From Longimicrobiales bacterium (GTDB taxonomy: Bacteria; Gemmatimonadota; Gemmatimonadetes; Longimicrobiales; Gaopeijiaceae): a stretch of DNA of 64,000 nucleotides. The position numbers were made by a program, and so were the translations under genes. Under the pieces are notes generated by a model. The model saw nothing but the letters and a program-made list of their open reading frames with translations, had not been told where the DNA came from and ran no database searches. Position 1 is the stretch's first letter. Each line of letters starts with the position of its first letter. The stretch lies in NCBI GenBank assembly GCA_965202805.1, contig OZ241869.1, positions 2,060,652 to 2,124,651 of the forward strand, given 5' to 3'. Positions 7,327 through 26,817 of this stretch are shown here, one piece after another.

Positions 7327-8295
7327 GTGAGCCGGAGGGTCCTCATCACCGGCGGCGCCGGATTCGTCGGGAGCCACGTGGCCGACGCCCACATCGCACG
7401 GGGCGATCGGGTCTGGATCATGGACGACCTCTCTTCGGGGCGGCTCGCGAACCTCCCCTCCCGCGCCGAGTTCGTCGAGATGAAAATCGGCGACCCCCGC
7501 GCCCGGGAGCTGATCAGCGATGTCGGCTTCGACCTGATCAACCACCACGCGGCGCAGATCGACGTTCGCGCCTCCGTAACAGACCCCATCGCGGACGCCA
7601 GGACGAACATCGTCGGCCTCATCAACATCCTGGAGGCGGCGCGCGACGCGGGGACCCGGCGGGTGGTCTTCGTGTCCAGCGGAGGCGTCGTCTACGGAGA
7701 GCCCGAGGTGTATCCCACGCCCGAGAGCGCCCCCAAGCGCCCGGTGTCCCCCTACGGGGTGTCGAAGCTCGCCGGTGAACACTACCTCGACTCATTTCGC
7801 GAAGTGCACGGCCTCGAGTGCGCGGTGCTCCGGTACGGCAACGTCTACGGCCCCAGGCAGGATCCCCACGGGGAGGCGGGCGTGGTGGCCATCTTCTGCA
7901 ATCGTCTGATCGACGGCCAAACCCTGGACATCTACGGCGACGGCGAGCAGACCCGGGACTACGTCTACGCGGAGGACGTGGCGACCGCCAACCTGATCGC
8001 CGCCGACATGCCGCTCGAGGACGACGCCGGAATCGATGCGAGAGCCTTCAACGTGGGCACCGGGGAGGCGACGAGCGTGAACACGCTGGCGACCCTCCTG
8101 GAAGAGATCGCGGGCGTACGTCCCGGCCGGATCCACAGGGACGCCCGTCCCGGCGAGCTTCGTCGCAGCGTGCTCTCGACGGCGCGCATCCGCGCGATGG
8201 GCTGGTCGCCCGCGCACACCCTGCGCGAGGGGCTGGCGCGCACGTTCAGGCACATCGCGTCGGAGAGGGCGGCGACTCCTCCGCGTTCGGTCTGA
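7327..8295 (+). CDS. NAD-dependent epimerase/dehydratase (UDP-hexose 4-epimerase-like extended SDR)
   Basis: GTG 7327 is in frame with ORF 6916..8295. ITGGAGFVGSH Rossmann motif, SPYGVSK (YxxxK); 322 aa. The upstream part of the ORF is antisense to the nucleotidylyltransferase gene. Confidence 0.85.
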   Translation: MSRRVLITGGAGFVGSHVADAHIARGDRVWIMDDLSSGRLANLPSRAEFVEMKIGDPRARELISDVGFDLINHHAAQIDVRASVTDPIADARTNIVGLINILEAARDAGTRRVVFVSSGGVVYGEPEVYPTPESAPKRPVSPYGVSKLAGEHYLDSFREVHGLECAVLRYGNVYGPRQDPHGEAGVVAIFCNRLIDGQTLDIYGDGEQTRDYVYAEDVATANLIAADMPLEDDAGIDARAFNVGTGEATSVNTLATLLEEIAGVRPGRIHRDARPGELRRSVLSTARIRAMGWSPAHTLREGLARTFRHIASERAATPPRSV

Positions 8296-8316
8296 TCTCT
8301 CGACGGTGCAAATGAC

Positions 8317-8349
8317 CCACGAGGTGGGTGATTATCACCCATCAGGTGG
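8317..8349. repeat. 33-bp imperfect palindrome with perfect core GGGTGAT-T-ATCACCC
   Basis: Arms ccacgaggtgggtgat / atcacccatcaggtgg match at 13 of 16 positions. The inner 7+1+7 core is perfect. Lies in the convergent spacer just after the epimerase stop. Confidence 0.6.
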
Positions 8350-8431
8350 TCGATCTGCACTCGTTGGGGTATGACGCGCACGGCATACGTGGAGTGGATG
8401 GCGGGCCGCATCGCCCAGGCGGGAGGGTGAC

Positions 8432-9580
8432 CTACCCGGGCGGGTCGAAACCGAGCCGCCAGACCACCATCTGAGGGTAGGCGCCTTCGGTCTCGGTATT
8501 CTCGATGGCCAGCCCATCGCCTACAAAGGCCTCGAACAGCGCATCGTGACGGCGGGTGGCGATGAACGAGCCGCTGTTGAGATCGATCAGGTCGATGCGA
8601 CTCTCGAAAACGTACCCCCAGTCATCGTCGGTCGGCGCATGGGCGATCCCCCCATTGGGCATGACCCGCTCCTCCAGGTGATCCAGCCAGTCATCCCTGC
8701 GGACGTGACCGAGCACCCAGAGCCGGTGTTCGCCGTCGACCTGCATCGCGAAGATCCGGCTGTGTGGCGGATTATCGGGAGACCAGGCCCCGCGTGAGGC
8801 TTCTCTTTCGTTCAGCCTGGGTCCTCTGAGCCCCAGGATCCTGCCGCCACTCGCGCTCCATACCCGGATGAGATAGTCGCCCAGCGCTCGAGCGCTGTAG
8901 ATGCGCGCCTCCCGACCGACGGCCAATACCCGAGGTGCGAAGCCCGGACCCTCAATGCCTTCCATCTGGTCGAACGAATGAAGGATGTCCAACCCCTCGA
9001 CGATGTGGAGCGGTACGCCCTCCGCCCCGGCCGTCGTCCTGCTTGTGTTCACCAGGTATCTCCCGTCCGCCCCGAGCGGTACGGCGACCTGGTAGATCCC
9101 CGGGAAGAGAGATCTGTCCGAACGATACGAGAAGTCGGCGTTCACAACGGTTTCTCGACCGTTAGCGAGGTCGAAGACATGCATCCGTCCCTCGCCGTCG
9201 GTGCCGACCGGGGCTGGACGCCGGAATTCCATGGGTCCGTCCCCCCTGCGACCGACCTGCCTCAGGAAACTCCCCTCCGCATCCCAGACCTTCACCACGG
9301 ACTCCCGCGGCATTCCCACCCAGTAGTTGCCAAAGTCATCAACCGCCCCGTATATCGACCAGTCGATGTAGCCCGGCTCTATCGTGTCGCCCAGGGTCAC
9401 GACGCGGTCGACGGTGATGCAGTTACCGCACGTTGCCGCACTCTCGAGGATGTCTACGATGGCGGTGCTGTCCTGCAGCGTGGTGAGATCCCTCGGGGCA
9501 TCGGGCGCGCCACAGCCGGAAAGCCAGCTGGCGAGGGCAATGGCCAGGGGCAGAGATGCCGTGGTGGACTTTCCGAACAT
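8432..9580 (-). CDS. hypothetical lipoprotein, probable beta-propeller fold
   Basis: Signal peptide with lipobox (ALASWLSGC). Recurrent Gly/Asp-rich strand-like repeats (DDFGNYWVG, GEGRMHVFD, ADGRYLVNT, DGEHRLWVLG). ATG 9580 (GGAGG upstream) is preferred to GTG 9589. No family was firmly recognised. Confidence 0.6.
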   Translation of the reverse strand: MFGKSTTASLPLAIALASWLSGCGAPDAPRDLTTLQDSTAIVDILESAATCGNCITVDRVVTLGDTIEPGYIDWSIYGAVDDFGNYWVGMPRESVVKVWDAEGSFLRQVGRRGDGPMEFRRPAPVGTDGEGRMHVFDLANGRETVVNADFSYRSDRSLFPGIYQVAVPLGADGRYLVNTSRTTAGAEGVPLHIVEGLDILHSFDQMEGIEGPGFAPRVLAVGREARIYSARALGDYLIRVWSASGGRILGLRGPRLNEREASRGAWSPDNPPHSRIFAMQVDGEHRLWVLGHVRRDDWLDHLEERVMPNGGIAHAPTDDDWGYVFESRIDLIDLNSGSFIATRRHDALFEAFVGDGLAIENTETEGAYPQMVVWRLGFDPPG

Positions 9581-9776
9581 TTGAGCCACCTCCGTGGCGG
9601 GCCGCCGGAACGAGCAGGCGGCGAACTCCCTCCCTTCCCCCTTCGTTCTACCCCTGCCTGGCGAAAATGCTCTCGGTCACGCCCGAGGTCAGAGCGTCTC
9701 CTGCCAGGCCACCAGGCCCTGAACTACAGCATCGCCGATCCACTGCTCGAATCTCCGGCGCGCATCCGCCAAGGCT

Positions 9777-19488: not shown

Positions 19489-20892
19489 ATGACATTCGAT
19501 GCACGCGCGCGGCGTCGCTCAGGCGGCGCGGCGCTCTTCCTGCTTGTGTTCGTCCCCGCGCTCGCGGAGGATCTGGCTGCCCAGAAGCCGGCCTACATCC
19601 CGGAAGACGTCCCGGCCCGCGTCCAGCCCCTGCCCTCCCTGCGCGAGCAGGCGGCTGAGCAGCAGGAGTGGCTTGAGCTTCGCATCGGGCGGATTCTGCC
19701 GGCGCTGATGGCGGAATACGACGTGCGCATGTGGATCCTGTCGATGCGCGAATACGCCGAGGATCCCGTCTTCTGGTCGATCACCTCGCCGACCACCTTC
19801 GCCGCCCGCCGGCGCTCGATCTACGTCTTCACCCGCCAGGACGACGGCACGGTGGAGCGGCTGGCGCTGGGCGGGACCGACCAGGGCGGGGTCTTCCAGG
19901 CGTACCGCTCCACCCGGCCGGCGCCCACCCAGCCCACCGCGGAACTGGTCGGCAACGAGCAGTGGCGGCTGCTGCGCGAGCTGGTGGAGGACCGCGATCC
20001 CGAGAACATCGTCCTCAACATCGATCCCGACTGGGCCTTCTCCGACGGACTGCACGCCGGCGAGCGCGAGGAGCTGGAGGAGGCGCTGGGCCCGGAGCTG
20101 ATGATGCGCGTGAAGCGCGAGCCGCGCCTGGCCATGAACTACATCGCCCTGCGCCTGCCGGAGATGATGCCCCGCTACCGCAAGATCGAAGAGACGGTGC
20201 ACGCGGTCATCTCGGAGGCGTTCTCGAACGCGGTGATCACGCCCGGGGAAACCACCATCGAGGACGTGGAGTGGTGGATGCGCCAGCGGGTGCGCGACCT
20301 GGGCTATACGGTCTGGTTCCAGGCCAACGTGGACGTCCAGCGGGCGGGCGACGTGCCCACGGACGGCCCCGCGGTGATCGAGCGCGGCGACCTGCTCTGG
20401 ACCGACTTCGGCGTGGTGGCCCAGAACCTCCACACCGACACCCAGCACCTGGGCTACGTCCTGCGCGAAGGCGAGACCGAGGTGCCCGCGGGGCTCCGGC
20501 AGTGCATGGCCAACTCGAACCGCCTCCAGGACATCCTGCTCGAGCACATGGAGCCGGGGCTCACCGGCAACGTGATCCTGGCCAACACGCTGGCGCAGAT
20601 GCGCGAAGAGGGCATCAACGGGACCGTCTACACGCACCCCATCGGCGACCACGGCCACGGCGCCGGGCCGCTGATCGGGCGCTGGGACGGGCAGGAGGGG
20701 GTGCCGGTGCGCGGCGACGCGGTGCTGCTGCCCTCGACCTGGCACTCGATCGAGCTGCAGGCCACGACCCCGATCCCGGAGTGGGACGGCAAGCCGGCGA
20801 GCTGCCGTCAGGAGGAGGAGGCGTACCTCGACGCCGACGGCGCGCGGCACTGGGTGTTCCGCAGGCAGAGCCGGTTCCACATCGTGTGGTAG
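19489..20892 (+). CDS. M24 family metallopeptidase (secreted, Xaa-Pro/creatinase-fold-like)
   Basis: ATG 19489 with GAAGGAG SD, followed by a signal peptide. Metal-ligand pattern LWTDFG...HTDTQ...HPIGDHGHGAG...HSIELQ. This is the last 467 codons of the 1304-aa track ORF; the rest of that ORF overlaps maeB out of frame. Confidence 0.7.
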   Translation: MTFDARARRRSGGAALFLLVFVPALAEDLAAQKPAYIPEDVPARVQPLPSLREQAAEQQEWLELRIGRILPALMAEYDVRMWILSMREYAEDPVFWSITSPTTFAARRRSIYVFTRQDDGTVERLALGGTDQGGVFQAYRSTRPAPTQPTAELVGNEQWRLLRELVEDRDPENIVLNIDPDWAFSDGLHAGEREELEEALGPELMMRVKREPRLAMNYIALRLPEMMPRYRKIEETVHAVISEAFSNAVITPGETTIEDVEWWMRQRVRDLGYTVWFQANVDVQRAGDVPTDGPAVIERGDLLWTDFGVVAQNLHTDTQHLGYVLREGETEVPAGLRQCMANSNRLQDILLEHMEPGLTGNVILANTLAQMREEGINGTVYTHPIGDHGHGAGPLIGRWDGQEGVPVRGDAVLLPSTWHSIELQATTPIPEWDGKPASCRQEEEAYLDADGARHWVFRRQSRFHIVW

Positions 20893-20946
20893 GGACCGCC
20901 GGTCACGGGGGAATCGCCGCCTCCGCCACCTGTGACGGCTGGCAGG

Positions 20947-21525
20947 TCAGTTCGGAGTCGGCGGCGTGACGACCGCGAGGCGGCCGCCGTCGTCCGGGGT
21001 CACCAGGATCACGTCTCGCGCGTCCGCGGAGACGATGGTGCTGAGAACCATGGCCGGGTCGCCGGAGGAGTCGGACGGGTCCGGGTTGGCGGCCGGGCTG
21101 GTGGTCGAATCGTCGAAGGACTGCGTCGGCGGGTCGGGAAGGAAGCTCACTTCGAGCGCGTGACGCCCGGGCGGGATCGGGAAGCGCTCGTGGACGCTGA
21201 CGGTGCGGGCCCGCGCGCTCGACCGACCCACCGGCCCGGCCCGGAGGGTGTCACCGTCCAGCAGAATCGTGAGCCGGAAGGACACCGCTTCGTCCGTGCA
21301 CACCTCCGTCGGGCGCATGTGCGGGAGGACGCCCCTCAGTTCGGCCTCCGTCGGCGGACGGCATCGCCGGTTGGATGGAGCCGGGATGCGCCACGACACC
21401 CGCAGTTCGGCGGCGTCCCCGGCCGAGGAGCGCCACGCGACCCGGGACAGGAGGACGATCCCGAGCAGGACGGTCACCGTCAGGGCCACGGCCGCCAGCT
21501 TCCGCGTGAACGTCGCTGCGGTCAT
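20947..21525 (-). CDS. hypothetical membrane-anchored protein
   Basis: ATG 21525 overlaps the upstream gene's stop (ATGA). One N-terminal TM helix (LAAVALTVTVLLGIVLL) is followed by a ~160-aa extracytoplasmic region. No family recognised. Confidence 0.45.
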   Translation of the reverse strand: MTAATFTRKLAAVALTVTVLLGIVLLSRVAWRSSAGDAAELRVSWRIPAPSNRRCRPPTEAELRGVLPHMRPTEVCTDEAVSFRLTILLDGDTLRAGPVGRSSARARTVSVHERFPIPPGRHALEVSFLPDPPTQSFDDSTTSPAANPDPSDSSGDPAMVLSTIVSADARDVILVTPDDGGRLAVVTPPTPN

Positions 21526-23063
21526 CGGGCCGCCGCCTTCCCGGGCACCTCGCACTCCGTGTCGATGGCGATCCCGTCTTCCCGGGTGGGGGCGTCGAGG
21601 AGCCCCAGCTCGCTCGCGAAATCAGCCCGGGCGCTCGCGAGGGCCTGCTCGTCGAAGCCGGACGCGTAGACGACCCGTACTCTCCGCCGGTCGACGCGCG
21701 CCTGCAGCTCCGCCTCTCTTTCGTGGTACAGCCGCTCGACGAGCCACCGGGGCCCCTCCCGGCCCCAGCAGTCGCGGGGCGGACACGCCACCACCAGAAC
21801 ACCGCCCACCCCGGCGCGCACCAGGTACTCCACCACCGAACTGTGCAGGTTGCCCGCGCACGACACCAGGAAGCGGCGGGAGTCCCTCCCCTGGCCCGGA
21901 CCGGCCGCGGACCGGCCGCACCCCACCACCACGATGTCCCCGCGCCCGAGCACCCGGCCTGCCGCGAACTCCCTGACGCGGCTCAGCTGGTCCCTGCCGG
22001 TGCGGCCGGGCGGCCCCACCCCCATGGGCGCGCACGACCCGGCGCAAATGCCGCAACTGACGCAGGCGGCCGGATTCACGCGGGCGACCAGACCCTCGCG
22101 CCCGTCGGTGCGTTCGACCATCCGGATGGCGTCCCAGGGACAGTCCACGTAGCACTGCTCGCACCCGGTGCACAGGCGCGTCGACGCCACCGAGGGCGCC
22201 GGCCGGCGGTCGGCGCGGGGACGCGTCAGGAGCGGCACGGCCAGCAGGGCCGTCCCCACCACCGCCGCGGCGAGCCACACCACCCCGGCGGAGGCGGAGC
22301 GGGCCGCCGGCAGCCAGAAGGCGTAGAAGACGTCCAGCACCACCTCCCCGGGCACCCGCAGCAGCTCCGCCGCGGGCGCCAGCGGGACGGGCAGAAGAAC
22401 CGCCGCCGCGACCAGCAGCCCGACCGTCCACCGGAGGAGCGGCCGCGGAGGCAGCATGACCGGCCGGGCGACCCGGGACACGTGCAGCCAGAGAAAGATC
22501 ACGATGCCGACCGGCAGCGCGATGTGCAGGAAGAGGTTCATGAAGAAGAAGGCGGCGGGCAGCGGGTCGGCGCCCGAGAAAGTCCGGGATATCGGTTCGG
22601 AGAAGAGCGGCAGGGCGTCGAGCAGCCGCGCACCCTCGGCGGCGAGCAACTGCCCCTGCGCGTCCCACACCATCACGTAGCCCGTCCAGCCGCAGACGTA
22701 CAGCAGGAACACCAGGAAGACGCCCGAAACCCAGGCGAGCGCGCGCGGCCCCCAGCTGCGGCCCTGGCAGAACATCCGCAGGGCGTGGGCGGCCGCGGCG
22801 ACCACGGCCAGGTCCGCCGCGTACCGGTGGAGCGACCGAATCCAGCGCCCTCCCCACACCTGGGCATCGATGCGGGCGACGGATTCCCAGGGTGCCCCGA
22901 TGCGGTAGAACAGGACCAGATAGAGCCCGGTGACGAGCACGACCGCCAGGCACGCCACCACCAGCGCGCCGGACTGGTAGAGCGGGTTCCACTTCCAGCC
23001 ATGGAGGCGGTCCACCCAGGAGTCGACGCGCCGCAGGGATTGCCCGAGGATTCGCTTGAGCAT
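21522..23063 (-). CDS. fusion protein: di-haem cytochrome b (N-terminal) + 2x[4Fe-4S] ferredoxin + MvhD/FlpD-like domain
   Basis: Two His-x13-His pairs sit on hydrophobic helices (HRYAADLAVVAAAAH; HIALPVGIVIFLWLH), as in cytochrome b. Cys clusters CTGCEQCYVDCP and CVSCGICAGSCAP. C-terminal VVVGCG...VSCAGN...VVACPPRDCW resembles the hydrogenase delta-subunit fold. Confidence 0.75.
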   Translation of the reverse strand: MLKRILGQSLRRVDSWVDRLHGWKWNPLYQSGALVVACLAVVLVTGLYLVLFYRIGAPWESVARIDAQVWGGRWIRSLHRYAADLAVVAAAAHALRMFCQGRSWGPRALAWVSGVFLVFLLYVCGWTGYVMVWDAQGQLLAAEGARLLDALPLFSEPISRTFSGADPLPAAFFFMNLFLHIALPVGIVIFLWLHVSRVARPVMLPPRPLLRWTVGLLVAAAVLLPVPLAPAAELLRVPGEVVLDVFYAFWLPAARSASAGVVWLAAAVVGTALLAVPLLTRPRADRRPAPSVASTRLCTGCEQCYVDCPWDAIRMVERTDGREGLVARVNPAACVSCGICAGSCAPMGVGPPGRTGRDQLSRVREFAAGRVLGRGDIVVVGCGRSAAGPGQGRDSRRFLVSCAGNLHSSVVEYLVRAGVGGVLVVACPPRDCWGREGPRWLVERLYHEREAELQARVDRRRVRVVYASGFDEQALASARADFASELGLLDAPTREDGIAIDTECEVPGKAAAR

Positions 23064-23312
23064 GGTGGTGTTCGCCGATTCGGCCGGAATGGACGTCGGG
23101 GGATCGCGCTCGCGTCCGCCTCCAGCCGCAACCGATTTCAGCCGGTTTCGCCGGAGGCCGCGAACGCTTGCGCGAGCATAAGTACCATATCATCATGACC
23201 TTATCCAGCATAGAGCACCGCGACGTGACCGAAGGCTCGCATGACCTCCAGGACGGCCGGCAACGCCCTTCCGGGGCGCGCCTGACCCCCAAACCCGAAG
23301 GAGCGCACACCC

Positions 23313-23498
23313 ATGGCCGACTCCGTCTCCCCTTCACCGCCCCCGGGTGACGAGGACGGGACCCCGGTTCCCCTCATGCAACGCCTCTACGACAGCCCGT
23401 TCCTGCTTCTCGCCGCGTGCATCCTGGTGATGTTCGTGTTCTTCACGGCGTGGGGCATGATCGAAATCATGTCGCTCGAACCCGCACCTTTGCCGTAG
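23313..23498 (+). CDS. small single-TM protein, possible oxidase subunit IIa analogue
   Basis: GAAGGAG SD. One TM helix (FLLLAACILVMFVFFTAWGMIEI). It sits immediately before subunit II, as cbaD does in the Thermus ba3 operon. The assignment is positional only. Confidence 0.45.
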   Translation: MADSVSPSPPPGDEDGTPVPLMQRLYDSPFLLLAACILVMFVFFTAWGMIEIMSLEPAPLP

Positions 23499-23513
23499 GG
23501 AGGGCCGCCGCCG

Positions 23514-24077
23514 ATGTACCGAACGGGAATCGAACCGCCGGAACGGATCTGGTGGAAGAAGATCGACCGCCACGAGAAGGTATGGGTGTGGATCGCCTTC
23601 GCGTGGTGCATGGTGCTCTTCGCGATGATGCCCCTCTGGCACCTGCGGGGCGGCCAGAACCCCTCCGGGATCCGGCACCGGGTGGAGCCGGCCGACTACC
23701 AGGCGAGGGTCACGGAGTTCATCCGGGAATACCAGGTGGGCACCGACAGCGGCTTCCCCGTAGTCGAACCGCCTCCGGGAAGCGATGTCTACCTGCAGGC
23801 GACGAGCTTCGCCTGGATGCCGGTGCTGCGGTTGCAACAGGGAGCCGAGTACGTCCTCCATCTCTCGTCGCTGGACGTGAACCACGGGTTCAACCTGTAC
23901 CCCCTCAACATCAATTTCCAGGTCGTTCCCGGATATGACTACGGCCTCCGGGTGGTCCCCAACGAGCCCGGTGAGTTCCACATCATATGCAACGAGTTCT
24001 GCGGAATCGGCCACCACCTGATGGTCGGCAAGATCATCGTCGAGCCGGCGGACGCGGAACAGGAAGGTGACCTGTGA
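23514..24077 (+). CDS. haem-copper oxidase subunit II (single TM helix + CuA cupredoxin domain)
   Basis: CuA ligand set: DVNHGF ... CNEFCGIGHHLM (CxExCGxxHxxM). One N-terminal TM helix, as in B-family subunit II. GGGAGG SD. Confidence 0.85.
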   Translation: MYRTGIEPPERIWWKKIDRHEKVWVWIAFAWCMVLFAMMPLWHLRGGQNPSGIRHRVEPADYQARVTEFIREYQVGTDSGFPVVEPPPGSDVYLQATSFAWMPVLRLQQGAEYVLHLSSLDVNHGFNLYPLNINFQVVPGYDYGLRVVPNEPGEFHIICNEFCGIGHHLMVGKIIVEPADAEQEGDL

Positions 24078-25795
24078 ACATCTTCCGGACCTGCCCGACG
24101 ACCGGCCTTCAGGTGCATCGAACCGCCGACCGCCTCATTCAGGCCAACGCGGTCGCGGCGACCGTGGCGCTCCTCATCGGGGGAATCGCGGCGCTGCTCG
24201 TCCTGCTGACGCGCTGGGAGGCCGTCCTCCTCCTCGACGCCGGCATGTTCTACCGCATGCTCACCGTGCACGGCATGAACATGCTCATCTTCTTCATCAT
24301 CTTCTTCGAGATGGCCGTGCTCTACTTCGCGTCCGCCGTCCTGCTCAACTGCAGGGTGCCGGCGCCCAGGGCCGGCTGGATCGCCTTCGCGCTCATGGTC
24401 GGCGGGGCGCTCATGGTCGAGTGGACGATGTGGACGGGCCGCGCCGACGTCCTGTTCACCTCCTACGTGCCGCTGCGGGCCCACCCGCTCTTCTATCTGG
24501 GGGTGATCCTGTTCGCGGTCGGCGCCCTGACCGTGGTCGGCCATTTCTTCGGCATCCTGACCGTGGCCAGGCGCGAGAATGCGTACGAGGGGTCGATGCC
24601 GCTGGTCACCTTCGGAGCACTCACCGCGGCCGCGATCGCGGCGGTCACCCTGCTGCACGGGGCGATCATCTACATCCCCACCTTCCTCTGGTCCCTCGGC
24701 CTCATGGAGGTCGATCCCCAGATGTACCGCCTGATCTGGTGGGGGCTCGGCCACTCCTCGCAGCAGATCAACGTGGCCGCCATGGTCTCGATCTGGTATC
24801 TGCTGGGCGCGCTCACGGTGGGCGCCGTGGTCCTGAACGAGAAAGTCAGCCGCACGGCGTTCGTCCTCTACGTCCTCTTCATCTCGATGGCCTCCGCGCA
24901 CCACCTGCTGGTCGACCCCGGGATGGGACCGGCGTGGAAGATCTGGAACACCAGCTACTTCATGTACATGGCCGTTCTGGCCTCGATGCTCCACGGCTTC
25001 ACCGTACCGGCCGGCATCGAATTGGGAATGCGCCTGCGGGGGGCGACCCAGGGGCTCTTCGGGTGGCTGAAGCGGGCCCCCTGGGGCGATCCCGGATTCA
25101 GCTCGCTGGTCTTCTCCATCGTGGTGTTCGGCTTCGTGGGCGGGATCACGGGAGTGACCTTCGGCACCGAACAGATCAACATCATCGCCCACAACACGCT
25201 GCGGATTCCCGGCCACTTCCACGCCACCGTGGTGTCGGGGACGGCGATGGCCTTCATGGGGATCACCTACTACGTCATTCCGCTCATCTTCCGGCGCGAG
25301 ATCGCCTTCTACCCGCTGGCCCGCATCCAGCCCTACCTGTTCGCCGTCGGCATGCTGGTGTTCTCGATGGCGATGACCTTCGCGGGCACCTTCGGCGTTC
25401 CGCGCAGGCACTGGAACGCCTCGTTCACGGGCGCGGTCTTCCAGCCCGAGTTCTCGCCCGCCGTCAACCTGATCATCGGCGTGATGGCGGTGGGCGGGCT
25501 GATCGCCATCGCCGGCGGCGCCATCTACATCGTGGTGACGGTGGTGTCGGTGTTCTTCGGGAAGAAGATGGCCGCGGACGATTCGGGGCTGGGCGCCGAG
25601 AGACGCGGTCTGCCTCCGGGCATCACCCATCCGCCACGCGCCCTGGTGGCGGAGGACAGCGAGGCGCTCGAACCCTCGGGCCGCATGGGACCGGTGCCGG
25701 GGACGATGGTGCTGGTGTTTATCTTCCTGGCCGCGTTCATCACCTACTACTTCGTGAACTGGACGCTGCTTTCGTTCCTGTGGGAGGTCGGATGA
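24074..25795 (+). CDS. haem-copper oxidoreductase subunit I, B-family-like, lacking the cross-linked Tyr
   Basis: Collinear with Thermus ba3 subunit I as I recall it: LTVHGMNM, WWGLGHSSQQ (helix VI CuB His), SAHHLLVDPG, GLFGWLKRAPWGDP, PGHFHATV, GVPRRHW. The GTG start overlaps the subunit II stop (GTGA). Confidence 0.9.
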   Translation: MNIFRTCPTTGLQVHRTADRLIQANAVAATVALLIGGIAALLVLLTRWEAVLLLDAGMFYRMLTVHGMNMLIFFIIFFEMAVLYFASAVLLNCRVPAPRAGWIAFALMVGGALMVEWTMWTGRADVLFTSYVPLRAHPLFYLGVILFAVGALTVVGHFFGILTVARRENAYEGSMPLVTFGALTAAAIAAVTLLHGAIIYIPTFLWSLGLMEVDPQMYRLIWWGLGHSSQQINVAAMVSIWYLLGALTVGAVVLNEKVSRTAFVLYVLFISMASAHHLLVDPGMGPAWKIWNTSYFMYMAVLASMLHGFTVPAGIELGMRLRGATQGLFGWLKRAPWGDPGFSSLVFSIVVFGFVGGITGVTFGTEQINIIAHNTLRIPGHFHATVVSGTAMAFMGITYYVIPLIFRREIAFYPLARIQPYLFAVGMLVFSMAMTFAGTFGVPRRHWNASFTGAVFQPEFSPAVNLIIGVMAVGGLIAIAGGAIYIVVTVVSVFFGKKMAADDSGLGAERRGLPPGITHPPRALVAEDSEALEPSGRMGPVPGTMVLVFIFLAAFITYYFVNWTLLSFLWEVG

Positions 25796-26817
25796 GAGAG
25801 GGGAGGGACGGTAGCGGGGCCGCCGCCGGGGCTGCCGCGGGCGGGGAGGGCCACGGGCCGACGGGCGTGAACGGTGCGCCCTCGTACGCGGCCGTTCGCG
25901 GGGCGATGGCGGCGATGGCGGCGCTGCTCGCGATCACGGTCGCGTGGTGGGCACTGGCGCTCTGGCCGGTGGCGGGGGTCCCGCCGGCGTGGCTGGAGCG
26001 TGCCCGCCAGGTGTGCTTCAACGCGGGTCCCTCAGGTCTCCCCGACGCGTCCGGATGGATGCTCCTGGTGGGCCAGCCCATCGGCATGCTGGCGGTGCTG
26101 ATGGTTGTCGCGGGGGATGCGGTGCGGGCGGGGCTGCGGCGGGCGCGGGGCAAACCGGCGGGCCGGGTTGCGCTCGCGGCGGCCGCCGGGGCGGTCGTGG
26201 CGGGGGCGGCGCTGGCCGGGGTGCGCGTCGCATCGGTTCCGGGGGACGCGGAGTGGCTGGAGGCCGCCCGCGCCGAGGTGCCCGCCACCTACCCGCGCCT
26301 GGACCGCCGCCTTCCGGCCATCGAGCTCGTCGACCAGCGCGGCGAAGCGTTCACGTGGGAGCGCATCGCGGGCCGCCCGGCGCTCCTCACCTTCGGCTTC
26401 GGGCACTGCGAGACCGTCTGTCCCATGACGGTCATGAACGCGCGCCGGGTCCAGGACCGGTTCCGGGGGGAGGGCCGGAAGATGGCGCTGGTGGTGATCA
26501 CGCTCGATCCCTGGCGCGACACCCCGTCCCGGCTTCCCGCCCTGGCGCGACAGTTCCACCTCGGCGGCGAGGGTTCGCATGCGAATGCGGAGGAAGGCGG
26601 CGAAGGCGGGGAGGGCGCGGGGTCCTTCCTGCTTTCCGGCTCGGTAGATGAGGTCAACGCGGCGCTGGACGCGCTGCAGGTGGCTCGCGAGCGGGTGCCG
26701 CGCACGGGAGACATCGTGCACCCGGCTCTCGTGTACCTGCTGGACGCGGAGGGTACGGTGGCCTACGCCGCGAGCGCGCACGCCGACCTGATCGAGGAGC
26801 TGGCGCGCCGCATGTAG
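25792..26817 (+). CDS. SCO1/SenC-type copper chaperone fused to an N-terminal polytopic membrane domain
   Basis: ATGA overlap with the subunit I stop. Thioredoxin-fold motif FGFGHCETVCP (CxxxC) with downstream DIVHPALVYLLD His. About 170 N-terminal residues contain 3 hydrophobic segments. Confidence 0.8.
   Translation: MREGRDGSGAAAGAAAGGEGHGPTGVNGAPSYAAVRGAMAAMAALLAITVAWWALALWPVAGVPPAWLERARQVCFNAGPSGLPDASGWMLLVGQPIGMLAVLMVVAGDAVRAGLRRARGKPAGRVALAAAAGAVVAGAALAGVRVASVPGDAEWLEAARAEVPATYPRLDRRLPAIELVDQRGEAFTWERIAGRPALLTFGFGHCETVCPMTVMNARRVQDRFRGEGRKMALVVITLDPWRDTPSRLPALARQFHLGGEGSHANAEEGGEGGEGAGSFLLSGSVDEVNAALDALQVARERVPRTGDIVHPALVYLLDAEGTVAYAASAHADLIEELARRM

Follow-up and report, generated by a model that had tools for sequence, protein, structure and literature searches.

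Two adjacent minus-strand genes were analyzed in a 64,000-nucleotide stretch of DNA from a Longimicrobiales bacterium (contig OZ241869.1, positions 2,060,652 to 2,124,651; the whole stretch is hereafter called the window, G+C approximately 69%), and were designated gene A (21522..23063, 513 amino acids) and gene B (20947..21525, 192 amino acids). Gene A encodes a Rieske-less, six-helix, di-haem bc-type cytochrome b continued by two [4Fe-4S] motifs and an MvhD-like domain, and gene B adds the seventh helix and the beta-sandwich of the same unit, which is fused into one polypeptide elsewhere and translationally coupled here. Judged by architecture and by the homologues found here, with the named proteins compared by description only, genes A and B represent the 'PDWF-FeS' cytochrome b family in the split version typical of Gemmatimonadota and Acidobacteriota, a clade combining cytochrome b, a 4Fe-4S domain and an MvhD domain that was named by Kao and Hunte in 2014 (PMC4122944). 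The module formed by A and B is inherited together with the core of a haem-copper enzyme of the eNOR type and with the gene for the copper chaperone SenC, and we give an even chance to the proposal that it is the electron supply of this enzyme, a cofactor wire leading from a cytoplasmic donor and/or quinol to CuA.

The initial annotation had assigned a single polypeptide to positions 20947-23063. The fusion of cytochrome b, two [4Fe-4S] motifs and an FlpD domain was found within gene A, and the coordinates proved to cover two genes in different frames of the minus strand, the ATG of gene B overlapping the TGA of gene A as ATGA, which is the coupling to a membrane-anchored protein that had also been noted. 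Gene A was defined by its open reading frame (ORF), its translation, and Pfam and NCBIfam matches, and was divided into a di-haem cytochrome b core with helices A-F (residues 1-288, 22200..23063), supported by conserved His residues and a structural match, a ferredoxin-type domain with two CxxCxxCxxxC motifs (residues ~290-350, 22014..22196), and an MvhD/FlpD-like domain with a candidate [2Fe-2S] site (residues ~375-490, 21594..21941), all on the minus strand. All three Pfam matches were above the gathering cut-off: Cytochrome_B at residues 27-195 (E value 2.2e-18), Fer4_7 at residues 298-344 (E 2.4e-8) and FlpD (PF02662) at residues 400-486 (E 2.5e-7; 31.2 bits, where 22.3 are required), and relatives of gene A reached E 5.6e-19 and 68.8 bits with PF02662. 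The top NCBIfam matches were small b-type cytochromes (ExtP and cytochrome b6). The core also matched cytochrome b6 with an E value of 3.4e-16. Residues 272-487 matched the C-terminal ferredoxin and MvhD region (553-769) of NCBIfam HdrA2 (E 2.1e-13), and the ferredoxin part matched the ferredoxin domain of HdrA in 5odc_A (E 6.9e-6).

Conservation was evaluated in an alignment of 150 homologues with 28-78% identity and in a second alignment of 20 sequences. Among the 150 homologues, the His-x13-His pairs H79/H93 and H180/H194 on helices B and D were invariant, and by bc1 numbering H79/H180 would bind the haem on the p-side and H93/H194 that on the n-side. The ferredoxin cysteines (298/301/304/308 and 334/337/340/344) were invariant at seven of the eight positions, with Cys301 retained in at least 90%, and C382, C402 and C427 of the FlpD domain were likewise at least 90% conserved; Cys432 attained this level in the 20-sequence alignment only. 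From this Cys pattern, Cys382, Cys402, Cys427 and Cys432 likely make up the candidate [2Fe-2S] site of the MvhD-like domain. Near the C-terminus (window region 21549-21554), split forms retain an acidic residue and a Cys (Cys504 in gene A, within ECEVP; DC or EC in relatives), and Cys504 coincides with a Cys of the gene B-like domain when aligned to the long forms, a coincidence that may be an alignment artefact.

The AlphaFold2 model of gene A was confident (predicted local distance difference test, pLDDT, 95.5; predicted template modelling score, pTM, 0.92) and confirmed the cytochrome b fold. Residues 23-288 of the model were superposed with VIA-align on the actinobacterial QcrB (9ftz_H) with a Z score of 24.6 and a root-mean-square deviation (rmsd) of 2.5 A over 255 residues; mitochondrial and proteobacterial cytochromes b gave Z scores of 20-23, and the Foldseek probability against bc1 cytochrome b was 1.0. 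These superpositions show that the core comprises the A-F helices and the ef loop of a bc-type cytochrome b, with helices E and F following helix D in both the hydropathy profile and the model. At the position of the Qo motif, where bc1 has PEWY (consensus P[ED]W[YF]), gene A reads LDVF; its Asp244 is kept in at least 90% of the sequences, the corresponding motifs of relatives being DWFY, DWFF, DLFY and similar. Since there are six helices and the N-terminus is inside, the iron-sulfur (Fe-S) domains are probably cytoplasmic, and this arrangement fits a wire between membrane and cytoplasm. Pfam, the invariant ligands and the model thus agree with the earlier domain reading of two His-x13-His pairs, additional transmembrane helices, two ferredoxin Cys clusters and an FlpD-like domain.

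Homologues of gene A comprised 2,643 database proteins at E<=0.001, and nearly all of 120 homologues among the matches listed contained the same three domains. A search of 1.8 billion cluster representatives returned 401 clusters at E<=1e-30, most of the distant relatives being 650-750 amino acids long. In a single scan of genome contigs all matches were close relatives, from Gemmatimonadota and Acidobacteriota, and named organisms of distant phyla (Nitrospinota and Dadabacteria) are known via cluster names only. The additional ~190 residues of the long relatives consist of a membrane helix and a domain that can be aligned with gene B: in BLASTP, gene B matched residues 563-710 of a 715-amino-acid relative (E 2e-13), and 16 long forms were aligned over both the membrane helix and the gene B-like domain. 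The junction of genes A and B showed the same 4-nucleotide start/stop overlap in 60 of the 63 loci in which gene B could be located. The possibility that the fusion arose from a frameshift or an assembly error was ruled out by the architecture shared among homologues and by the conservation of this overlap.

The electron conduit was initially regarded as novel; its architecture had in fact already been described (PMC4122944), and cytochrome b-FeS proteins of an eNOR operon have been discussed in a preprint on Ferrigenium straubiae (bioRxiv 10.64898/2026.01.22.701106). The eNOR operon of that bacterium holds cytochrome b-FeS genes and a fusion of cytochrome b-FeS with flavin adenine dinucleotide (FAD)- and NADH-binding parts, and both cytochrome b proteins were detected in the proteome (bioRxiv 10.64898/2026.01.22.701106). 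Kao and Hunte also listed a fusion in which cytochrome b is combined with a ferredoxin and a flavin oxidoreductase (PMC4122944). The proteins described here share with the PDWF-FeS and Ferrigenium proteins the cytochrome b core, a Qo-like motif, Fe-S domains other than Rieske and the lack of a Rieske gene in the cluster, and with Ferrigenium the context of an eNOR operon; in contrast, the C-terminal helix and periplasmic domain have here a gene of their own, translationally coupled to the first, both genes diverge from the eNOR operon instead of lying within it, and the Qo motif is degenerate (LDVF).

Gene B encodes an N-terminal membrane helix (residues ~6-32) followed by a beta-sandwich, and was modelled by AlphaFold2 in this form with a pLDDT of 89. 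No Pfam or NCBIfam family was matched, the best E value in a Foldseek search of the PDB was only 0.03, and a wide VIA-align search gave at best a Z score of 7.9 (rmsd 3.4 A over 95 residues), with generic beta-sandwiches in a range that the tool calls common; the fold therefore discloses no function. In an alignment of 50 sequences His69-Met70 was invariant and Cys55 and Cys76 were nearly so, and the relative that misses one of these cysteines misses both and keeps His-Met. The paired loss suggests a loop that is stapled by a Cys55-Cys76 disulfide and presents His-Met.

Gene A and gene B were predicted to form a complex with a score of 0.81, as compared with 0.00 for the best of three controls; solved complexes attained this score in 58 of 80 cases and mismatched pairs in 2 of 110, counts that are only rough owing to the custom alignments. 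Separate runs agreed in at least 96% of contacts, with a partner pLDDT of at least 76. The predicted interface joins residues 8-46 of gene B with residues 80-88, 154-165, 216-227 and 233-246 of gene A, the last including Asp244, so that the helix of gene B packs on helices B and E and the sandwich rests on the cd and ef loops (154-165 and 233-246). Gene B is thus predicted to dock on the periplasmic (p-side) face of cytochrome b, over the ef-loop and the Qo-like region, and its sandwich would lie in the periplasm, roughly where bc1 has the Rieske protein and cytochrome c1. To our knowledge, no similar complex has been solved. Gene B had previously been treated as a membrane-anchored protein of no assigned role; its fusion in other phyla and its predicted p-side docking make it a part of the gene A unit, and in the model the A+B module reaches the cytoplasm, the membrane and the periplasm.

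The divergent operon on the plus strand begins with a 61-amino-acid, single-helix membrane ORF read from the sequence (23313..23498) and continues with haem-copper subunit II (23514..24077; PF00116, TIGR02866), subunit I (24074..25795; PF00115, E 1.5e-57) and a SCO1/SenC copper chaperone of 341 amino acids (25792..26817; PF02630, E 7.8e-26), whose gene overlaps the stop of subunit I by ATGA. Subunit II has an intact CuA motif (H...CNEFCGIGHHLM), all CuA ligands being kept in the translation. Subunit I is B-family-derived, its nearest solved relatives being B-family ba3 oxidases (E ~1e-44 to 1e-48). When aligned to Thermus thermophilus ba3 (1ehk_A), GHSSQQ stands opposite GHPIVY, replacing the cross-linked Tyr237 by Gln, and the HH and HFH motifs are kept, as are all three His that bind metal and the His ligands of haem. 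Gln at the Tyr position of ba3 defines eNOR, while sNOR and bNOR have Asn and gNOR has Asp (PMC8756737); by this criterion, subunit I is of the eNOR type rather than sNOR. Experiments have shown that the eNOR of Rhodothermus marinus reduces nitric oxide (NO) and leaves O2 unreduced (Murali et al. 2024, PMC11214002). The present enzyme, assigned from its sequence, resembles that of R. marinus in its B-family origin, its CuA subunit II, the Gln in place of the cross-linked Tyr and the retained His ligands, and differs in that no CtaA gene is present in the window cluster. What was initially annotated as an atypical oxidase is an eNOR-type member of the haem-copper superfamily (Gln, intact CuA subunit, SenC), so that the context is NO reduction rather than O2 respiration. 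The SenC protein carries a hydrophobic N-terminal membrane extension of ~170 amino acids ahead of the SCO1 domain. The 61-amino-acid ORF was found by tblastn 5' of subunit II in most related loci, with a gene of 48-57 amino acids at this position in distant loci; it is absent from Pfam and may be a small subunit of the oxidase, comparable to subunit IIa of ba3.

Co-occurrence of gene A with this enzyme was surveyed in 301 Gemmatimonadota genomes, oxidase orthologues being defined by at least 68% identity. Gene A was present in 67 genomes and the orthologue in 65, and every one of these 65 also contained gene A, in the great majority on the same contig at a distance of 1-3 kb; the 65 genomes cover 42 genera and are kin, so the count overstates their independence. 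Two exceptions were accounted for: one is an assembly of 490 contigs that has gene A on a short contig, and the other is genome G126, in which gene A is reduced to its final ~180 residues, SenC to three fragments, and a homologue of gene B remains, without an orthologous oxidase (locus L120, ~7360-9000); these parts seem to have been lost together. Among 80 named loci, the order small ORF-subunit II-subunit I-SenC divergent from gene A was found wherever the flank sufficed, except for another arrangement in L112, and GHxxQQ was present in all 73 readable neighbouring oxidases. Five distant metagenomic loci (28-48% identity to gene A) carried subunit II, COX1 (GHxSQQ), SenC and a long fusion on one strand, with NirK-like, NnrS, Crp or Rrf2 genes near several of them. 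A NuoF-like gene (Complex1_51K, SLBB, NADH_4Fe-4S) lies between two paralogous long fusions on the P0229 contig (Logan SRR22388050), in a cluster with NirK-like, COX2, COX1, a second, 476-amino-acid COX1-like gene, UbiA and SenC, and a Rieske/cytochrome b pair adjoins. The association with the oxidase that had been proposed is thus strongly supported by these counts and by the conserved adjacency. Neither hdr nor mvh genes were found in any locus examined, the neighbours in the window being peptidases and the eNOR operon.

In the mechanism that we put forward, the [2Fe-2S] site, the two [4Fe-4S] clusters, the n-side haem b and the p-side haem b would form, in this order, a transmembrane wire. 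A cytoplasmic donor, quinol in the Qo-like pocket, or both would supply the electrons, which would leave on the periplasmic side, where gene B would cap the chain, and pass to CuA of eNOR for the reduction of NO. The cytoplasmic donor in some relatives may be a flavoprotein module binding NAD(P)H (reduced nicotinamide adenine dinucleotide or its phosphate): the NuoF-like gene between the paralogues, the FAD-NADH fusion of Ferrigenium and the flavin fusion of Kao and Hunte together suggest that in some lineages the chain receives its electrons on the cytoplasmic side from NAD(P)H. An electron supply to eNOR is also favored by the NirK-like and NnrS genes that adjoin distant copies of the fusion.

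Several points weigh against this assignment. LDVF is a degenerate version of the Qo motif P[DE]W[YF], and in gene B no site for a redox cofactor could be recognised, only the invariant His-Met and the Cys pair; as gene B is a generic beta-sandwich, the final step to CuA is left without an identified carrier, and the His-Met loop lies outside the predicted interface with gene A. A Nitrospinota copy was found without an oxidase on an 8-kb contig. Moreover, a second subclade of eNOR-like enzymes, with the motif WIIGHGTQQIN and 45-49% identity, occurs in four Gemmatimonadota genomes (G269, G190, G260 and G289; 7959-9665 in both L118 and L119 of genomes G269 and G190) together with UbiA and an Rrf2 regulator and without SenC, gene A and gene B, so that eNOR-like enzymes can manage without the module. 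The purified R. marinus eNOR reduced NO with N,N,N',N'-tetramethyl-p-phenylenediamine (TMPD)/ascorbate and reportedly contained only haem As in both haem sites (PMC11214002); hence the module is dispensable for catalysis in vitro, and no tightly bound subunit of this kind is present there.

We consider a role in maturation or repair improbable, although it is the best placed of the alternatives. Here the wire would furnish SenC and gene B, on the periplasmic side, with reductant from the cytoplasm, for them to assemble or re-reduce CuA or the active-site metals of eNOR, for example by converting Cu(II) to Cu(I) or by holding the thiols of CuA or Sco reduced, without catalytic flux. The His-Met of gene B, on a loop probably stapled by Cys55 and Cys76, may resemble the His/Met ligands that periplasmic carriers use to bind Cu(I); one His-Met pair alone is, however, an incomplete copper site, and one relative that retains His-Met has lost both cysteines. 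SenC is always in the cluster, its stop overlapping the start of the fusion in co-directional operons, the eNOR-like subclade that lacks the fusion lacks SenC as well, and purified eNOR works without b haem (PMC11214002). On the other hand, a chain of five cofactors with a conserved Qo-like pocket is oversized for an assembly factor, and the NAD(P)H-flavoprotein partners of relatives and the detection in the proteome look respiratory.

Bifurcation of quinol is rated as somewhat less probable again. One electron of quinol oxidised at the Qo-like site would go to eNOR, pulled by the very positive NO/N2O couple, and the other would be driven via the two b haems to the cytoplasmic Fe-S clusters and reduce a low-potential carrier (NAD(P)+ or ferredoxin), in a Rieske-less analogue of the Q-cycle. 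The retained cytochrome b core and ef loop with the conserved Asp244 are in line with such a site; the vicinity contains no Rieske gene, and the genome encodes no cytochrome b besides gene A. Relatives have NAD(H)-binding modules joined to the fusion or next to it (PMC4122944; Ferrigenium; the P0229 contig), the hypothesis itself was put forward in the Ferrigenium preprint (bioRxiv 10.64898/2026.01.22.701106), and similar ideas have been voiced for anammox Rieske/cytochrome b complexes (PMC12954380). A high-potential one-electron acceptor like the Rieske cluster is lacking, however, gene B being without an evident cofactor; the window cluster contains no gene for a cytoplasmic acceptor, and a heterotroph in which no nirK, nirS or nosZ was found has little need of reverse electron flow. 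The more specific form, in which gene B with its His-Met loop would be a new kind of periplasmic exit domain and NO reduction would be coupled to the regeneration of NAD(P)H or ferredoxin, appears a little less probable than bifurcation as such. A general quinone/Fe-S oxidoreductase of another pathway, merely co-located or co-regulated with eNOR, is very improbable: one distant copy occurs without an oxidase on a short contig, but the two genes co-occur in 65 of 65 genomes over many genera (a support overstated by kinship), their adjacency is kept across phyla at 28-48% identity, and they have decayed jointly in G126.

Compared with known systems, gene A resembles the cytochromes b of bc1, b6f and the actinobacterial QcrB in the fold of helices A-F, the four His in H-x13-H spacing and the acidic residue in the ef loop, and differs from them in having no Rieske protein, no cytochrome c1 or f and six helices only, in continuing on the n-side, the Qi-side face of bc1, into Fe-S domains, and in being capped by gene B on the p-side. 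With MvhD and the C-terminus of HdrA2 in the electron-bifurcating Mvh-Hdr complexes of methanogens it shares the tandem of ferredoxin and MvhD domains, the FlpD match and a probable role as Fe-S connector; in contrast, gene A has no hydrogenase, Hdr or FAD domain, its candidate cluster type is read from the Cys pattern, and its tandem is joined to a membrane cytochrome, in a host that possesses an A-family oxidase as well. The di-haem succinate:menaquinone reductases of Bacillus and Wolinella and the DsrMK/HmeCD complexes are alike in outline, as a cytoplasmic Fe-S chain leads to two stacked b haems and the quinone pool, whereas the SdhC-type and NarI-type cytochrome b folds are unrelated to gene A and homology is confined to the ferredoxin motifs.

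The spacer between gene A and the 61-amino-acid ORF, described earlier as approximately 250 bp, measures 249 bp (23064..23312). It contains a conserved AT-rich, palindrome-like element at ~23178-23215 of the type TATCAT-N6-ATGATA, with the core CATATCATCATG at 23186-23197, which is invariant in the eight closest spacers and present with at most two mismatches in 50 of 77 spacers; it is a probable operator or promoter, and no sigma-70-like promoter was found in 20800-23600. Rrf2-family regulators are encoded in or near the cluster in relatives. Within the spacer of the seven closest relatives (L034-L040, ~7350-8000), an Rrf2-family gene of ~150 amino acids (Pfam E 5.5e-28) encodes an NsrR/IscR-like C-x6-C-x5-C; this gene is absent from the spacer of the window, and no match was obtained in the whole genome with the Rrf2 regulator of these relatives as query. 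In L037 (7201-8001, minus strand), the Rrf2 frame reads through into the small membrane ORF, either as a fusion or because the true start or stop differs from the mechanical ORF. At the other end, a convergent M24 peptidase gene lies 3' of gene B, so that the minus-strand unit consists of genes A and B only.

The source genome is complete (4.02 Mb, one contig), and its closest relatives belong to Gemmatimonadota, order Longimicrobiales. Gene A is the sole PF00033 cytochrome b in this 98%-complete genome, which contains one A-family oxidase (C1:2508086-2509492) besides the eNOR-type enzyme. No Rieske gene was found in the cluster, the two PF00355 matches in the genome (frames of 361 and 437 amino acids) being ~160 kb and 815 kb off. 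Searches of the whole genome for NirK, NirS and NosZ gave nothing above the cut-offs, which makes NO detoxification a likely role and, from gene content, a more plausible one than denitrification in the host organism.

What the window adds to the published description of this family is a natural two-gene split, by which the periplasmic domain becomes separable as a subunit, the evidence that ties gene B to the cytochrome's p-side, a nearly perfect phylogenetic profile within a single phylum, a regulatory spacer, and a complete genome in which gene A is the sole bc-type cytochrome b. Enzymes of the eNOR type account for a large share of environmental NO reductases, which produce nitrous oxide (N2O) (Murali et al. 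2024, PMC11214002). A conserved membrane protein with five cofactors that is co-inherited with eNOR is the obvious candidate for wiring these enzymes into the respiratory chain, and settling whether it feeds the enzyme, serves its maturation or conserves energy would shift the estimates of energy yield for this route to N2O.

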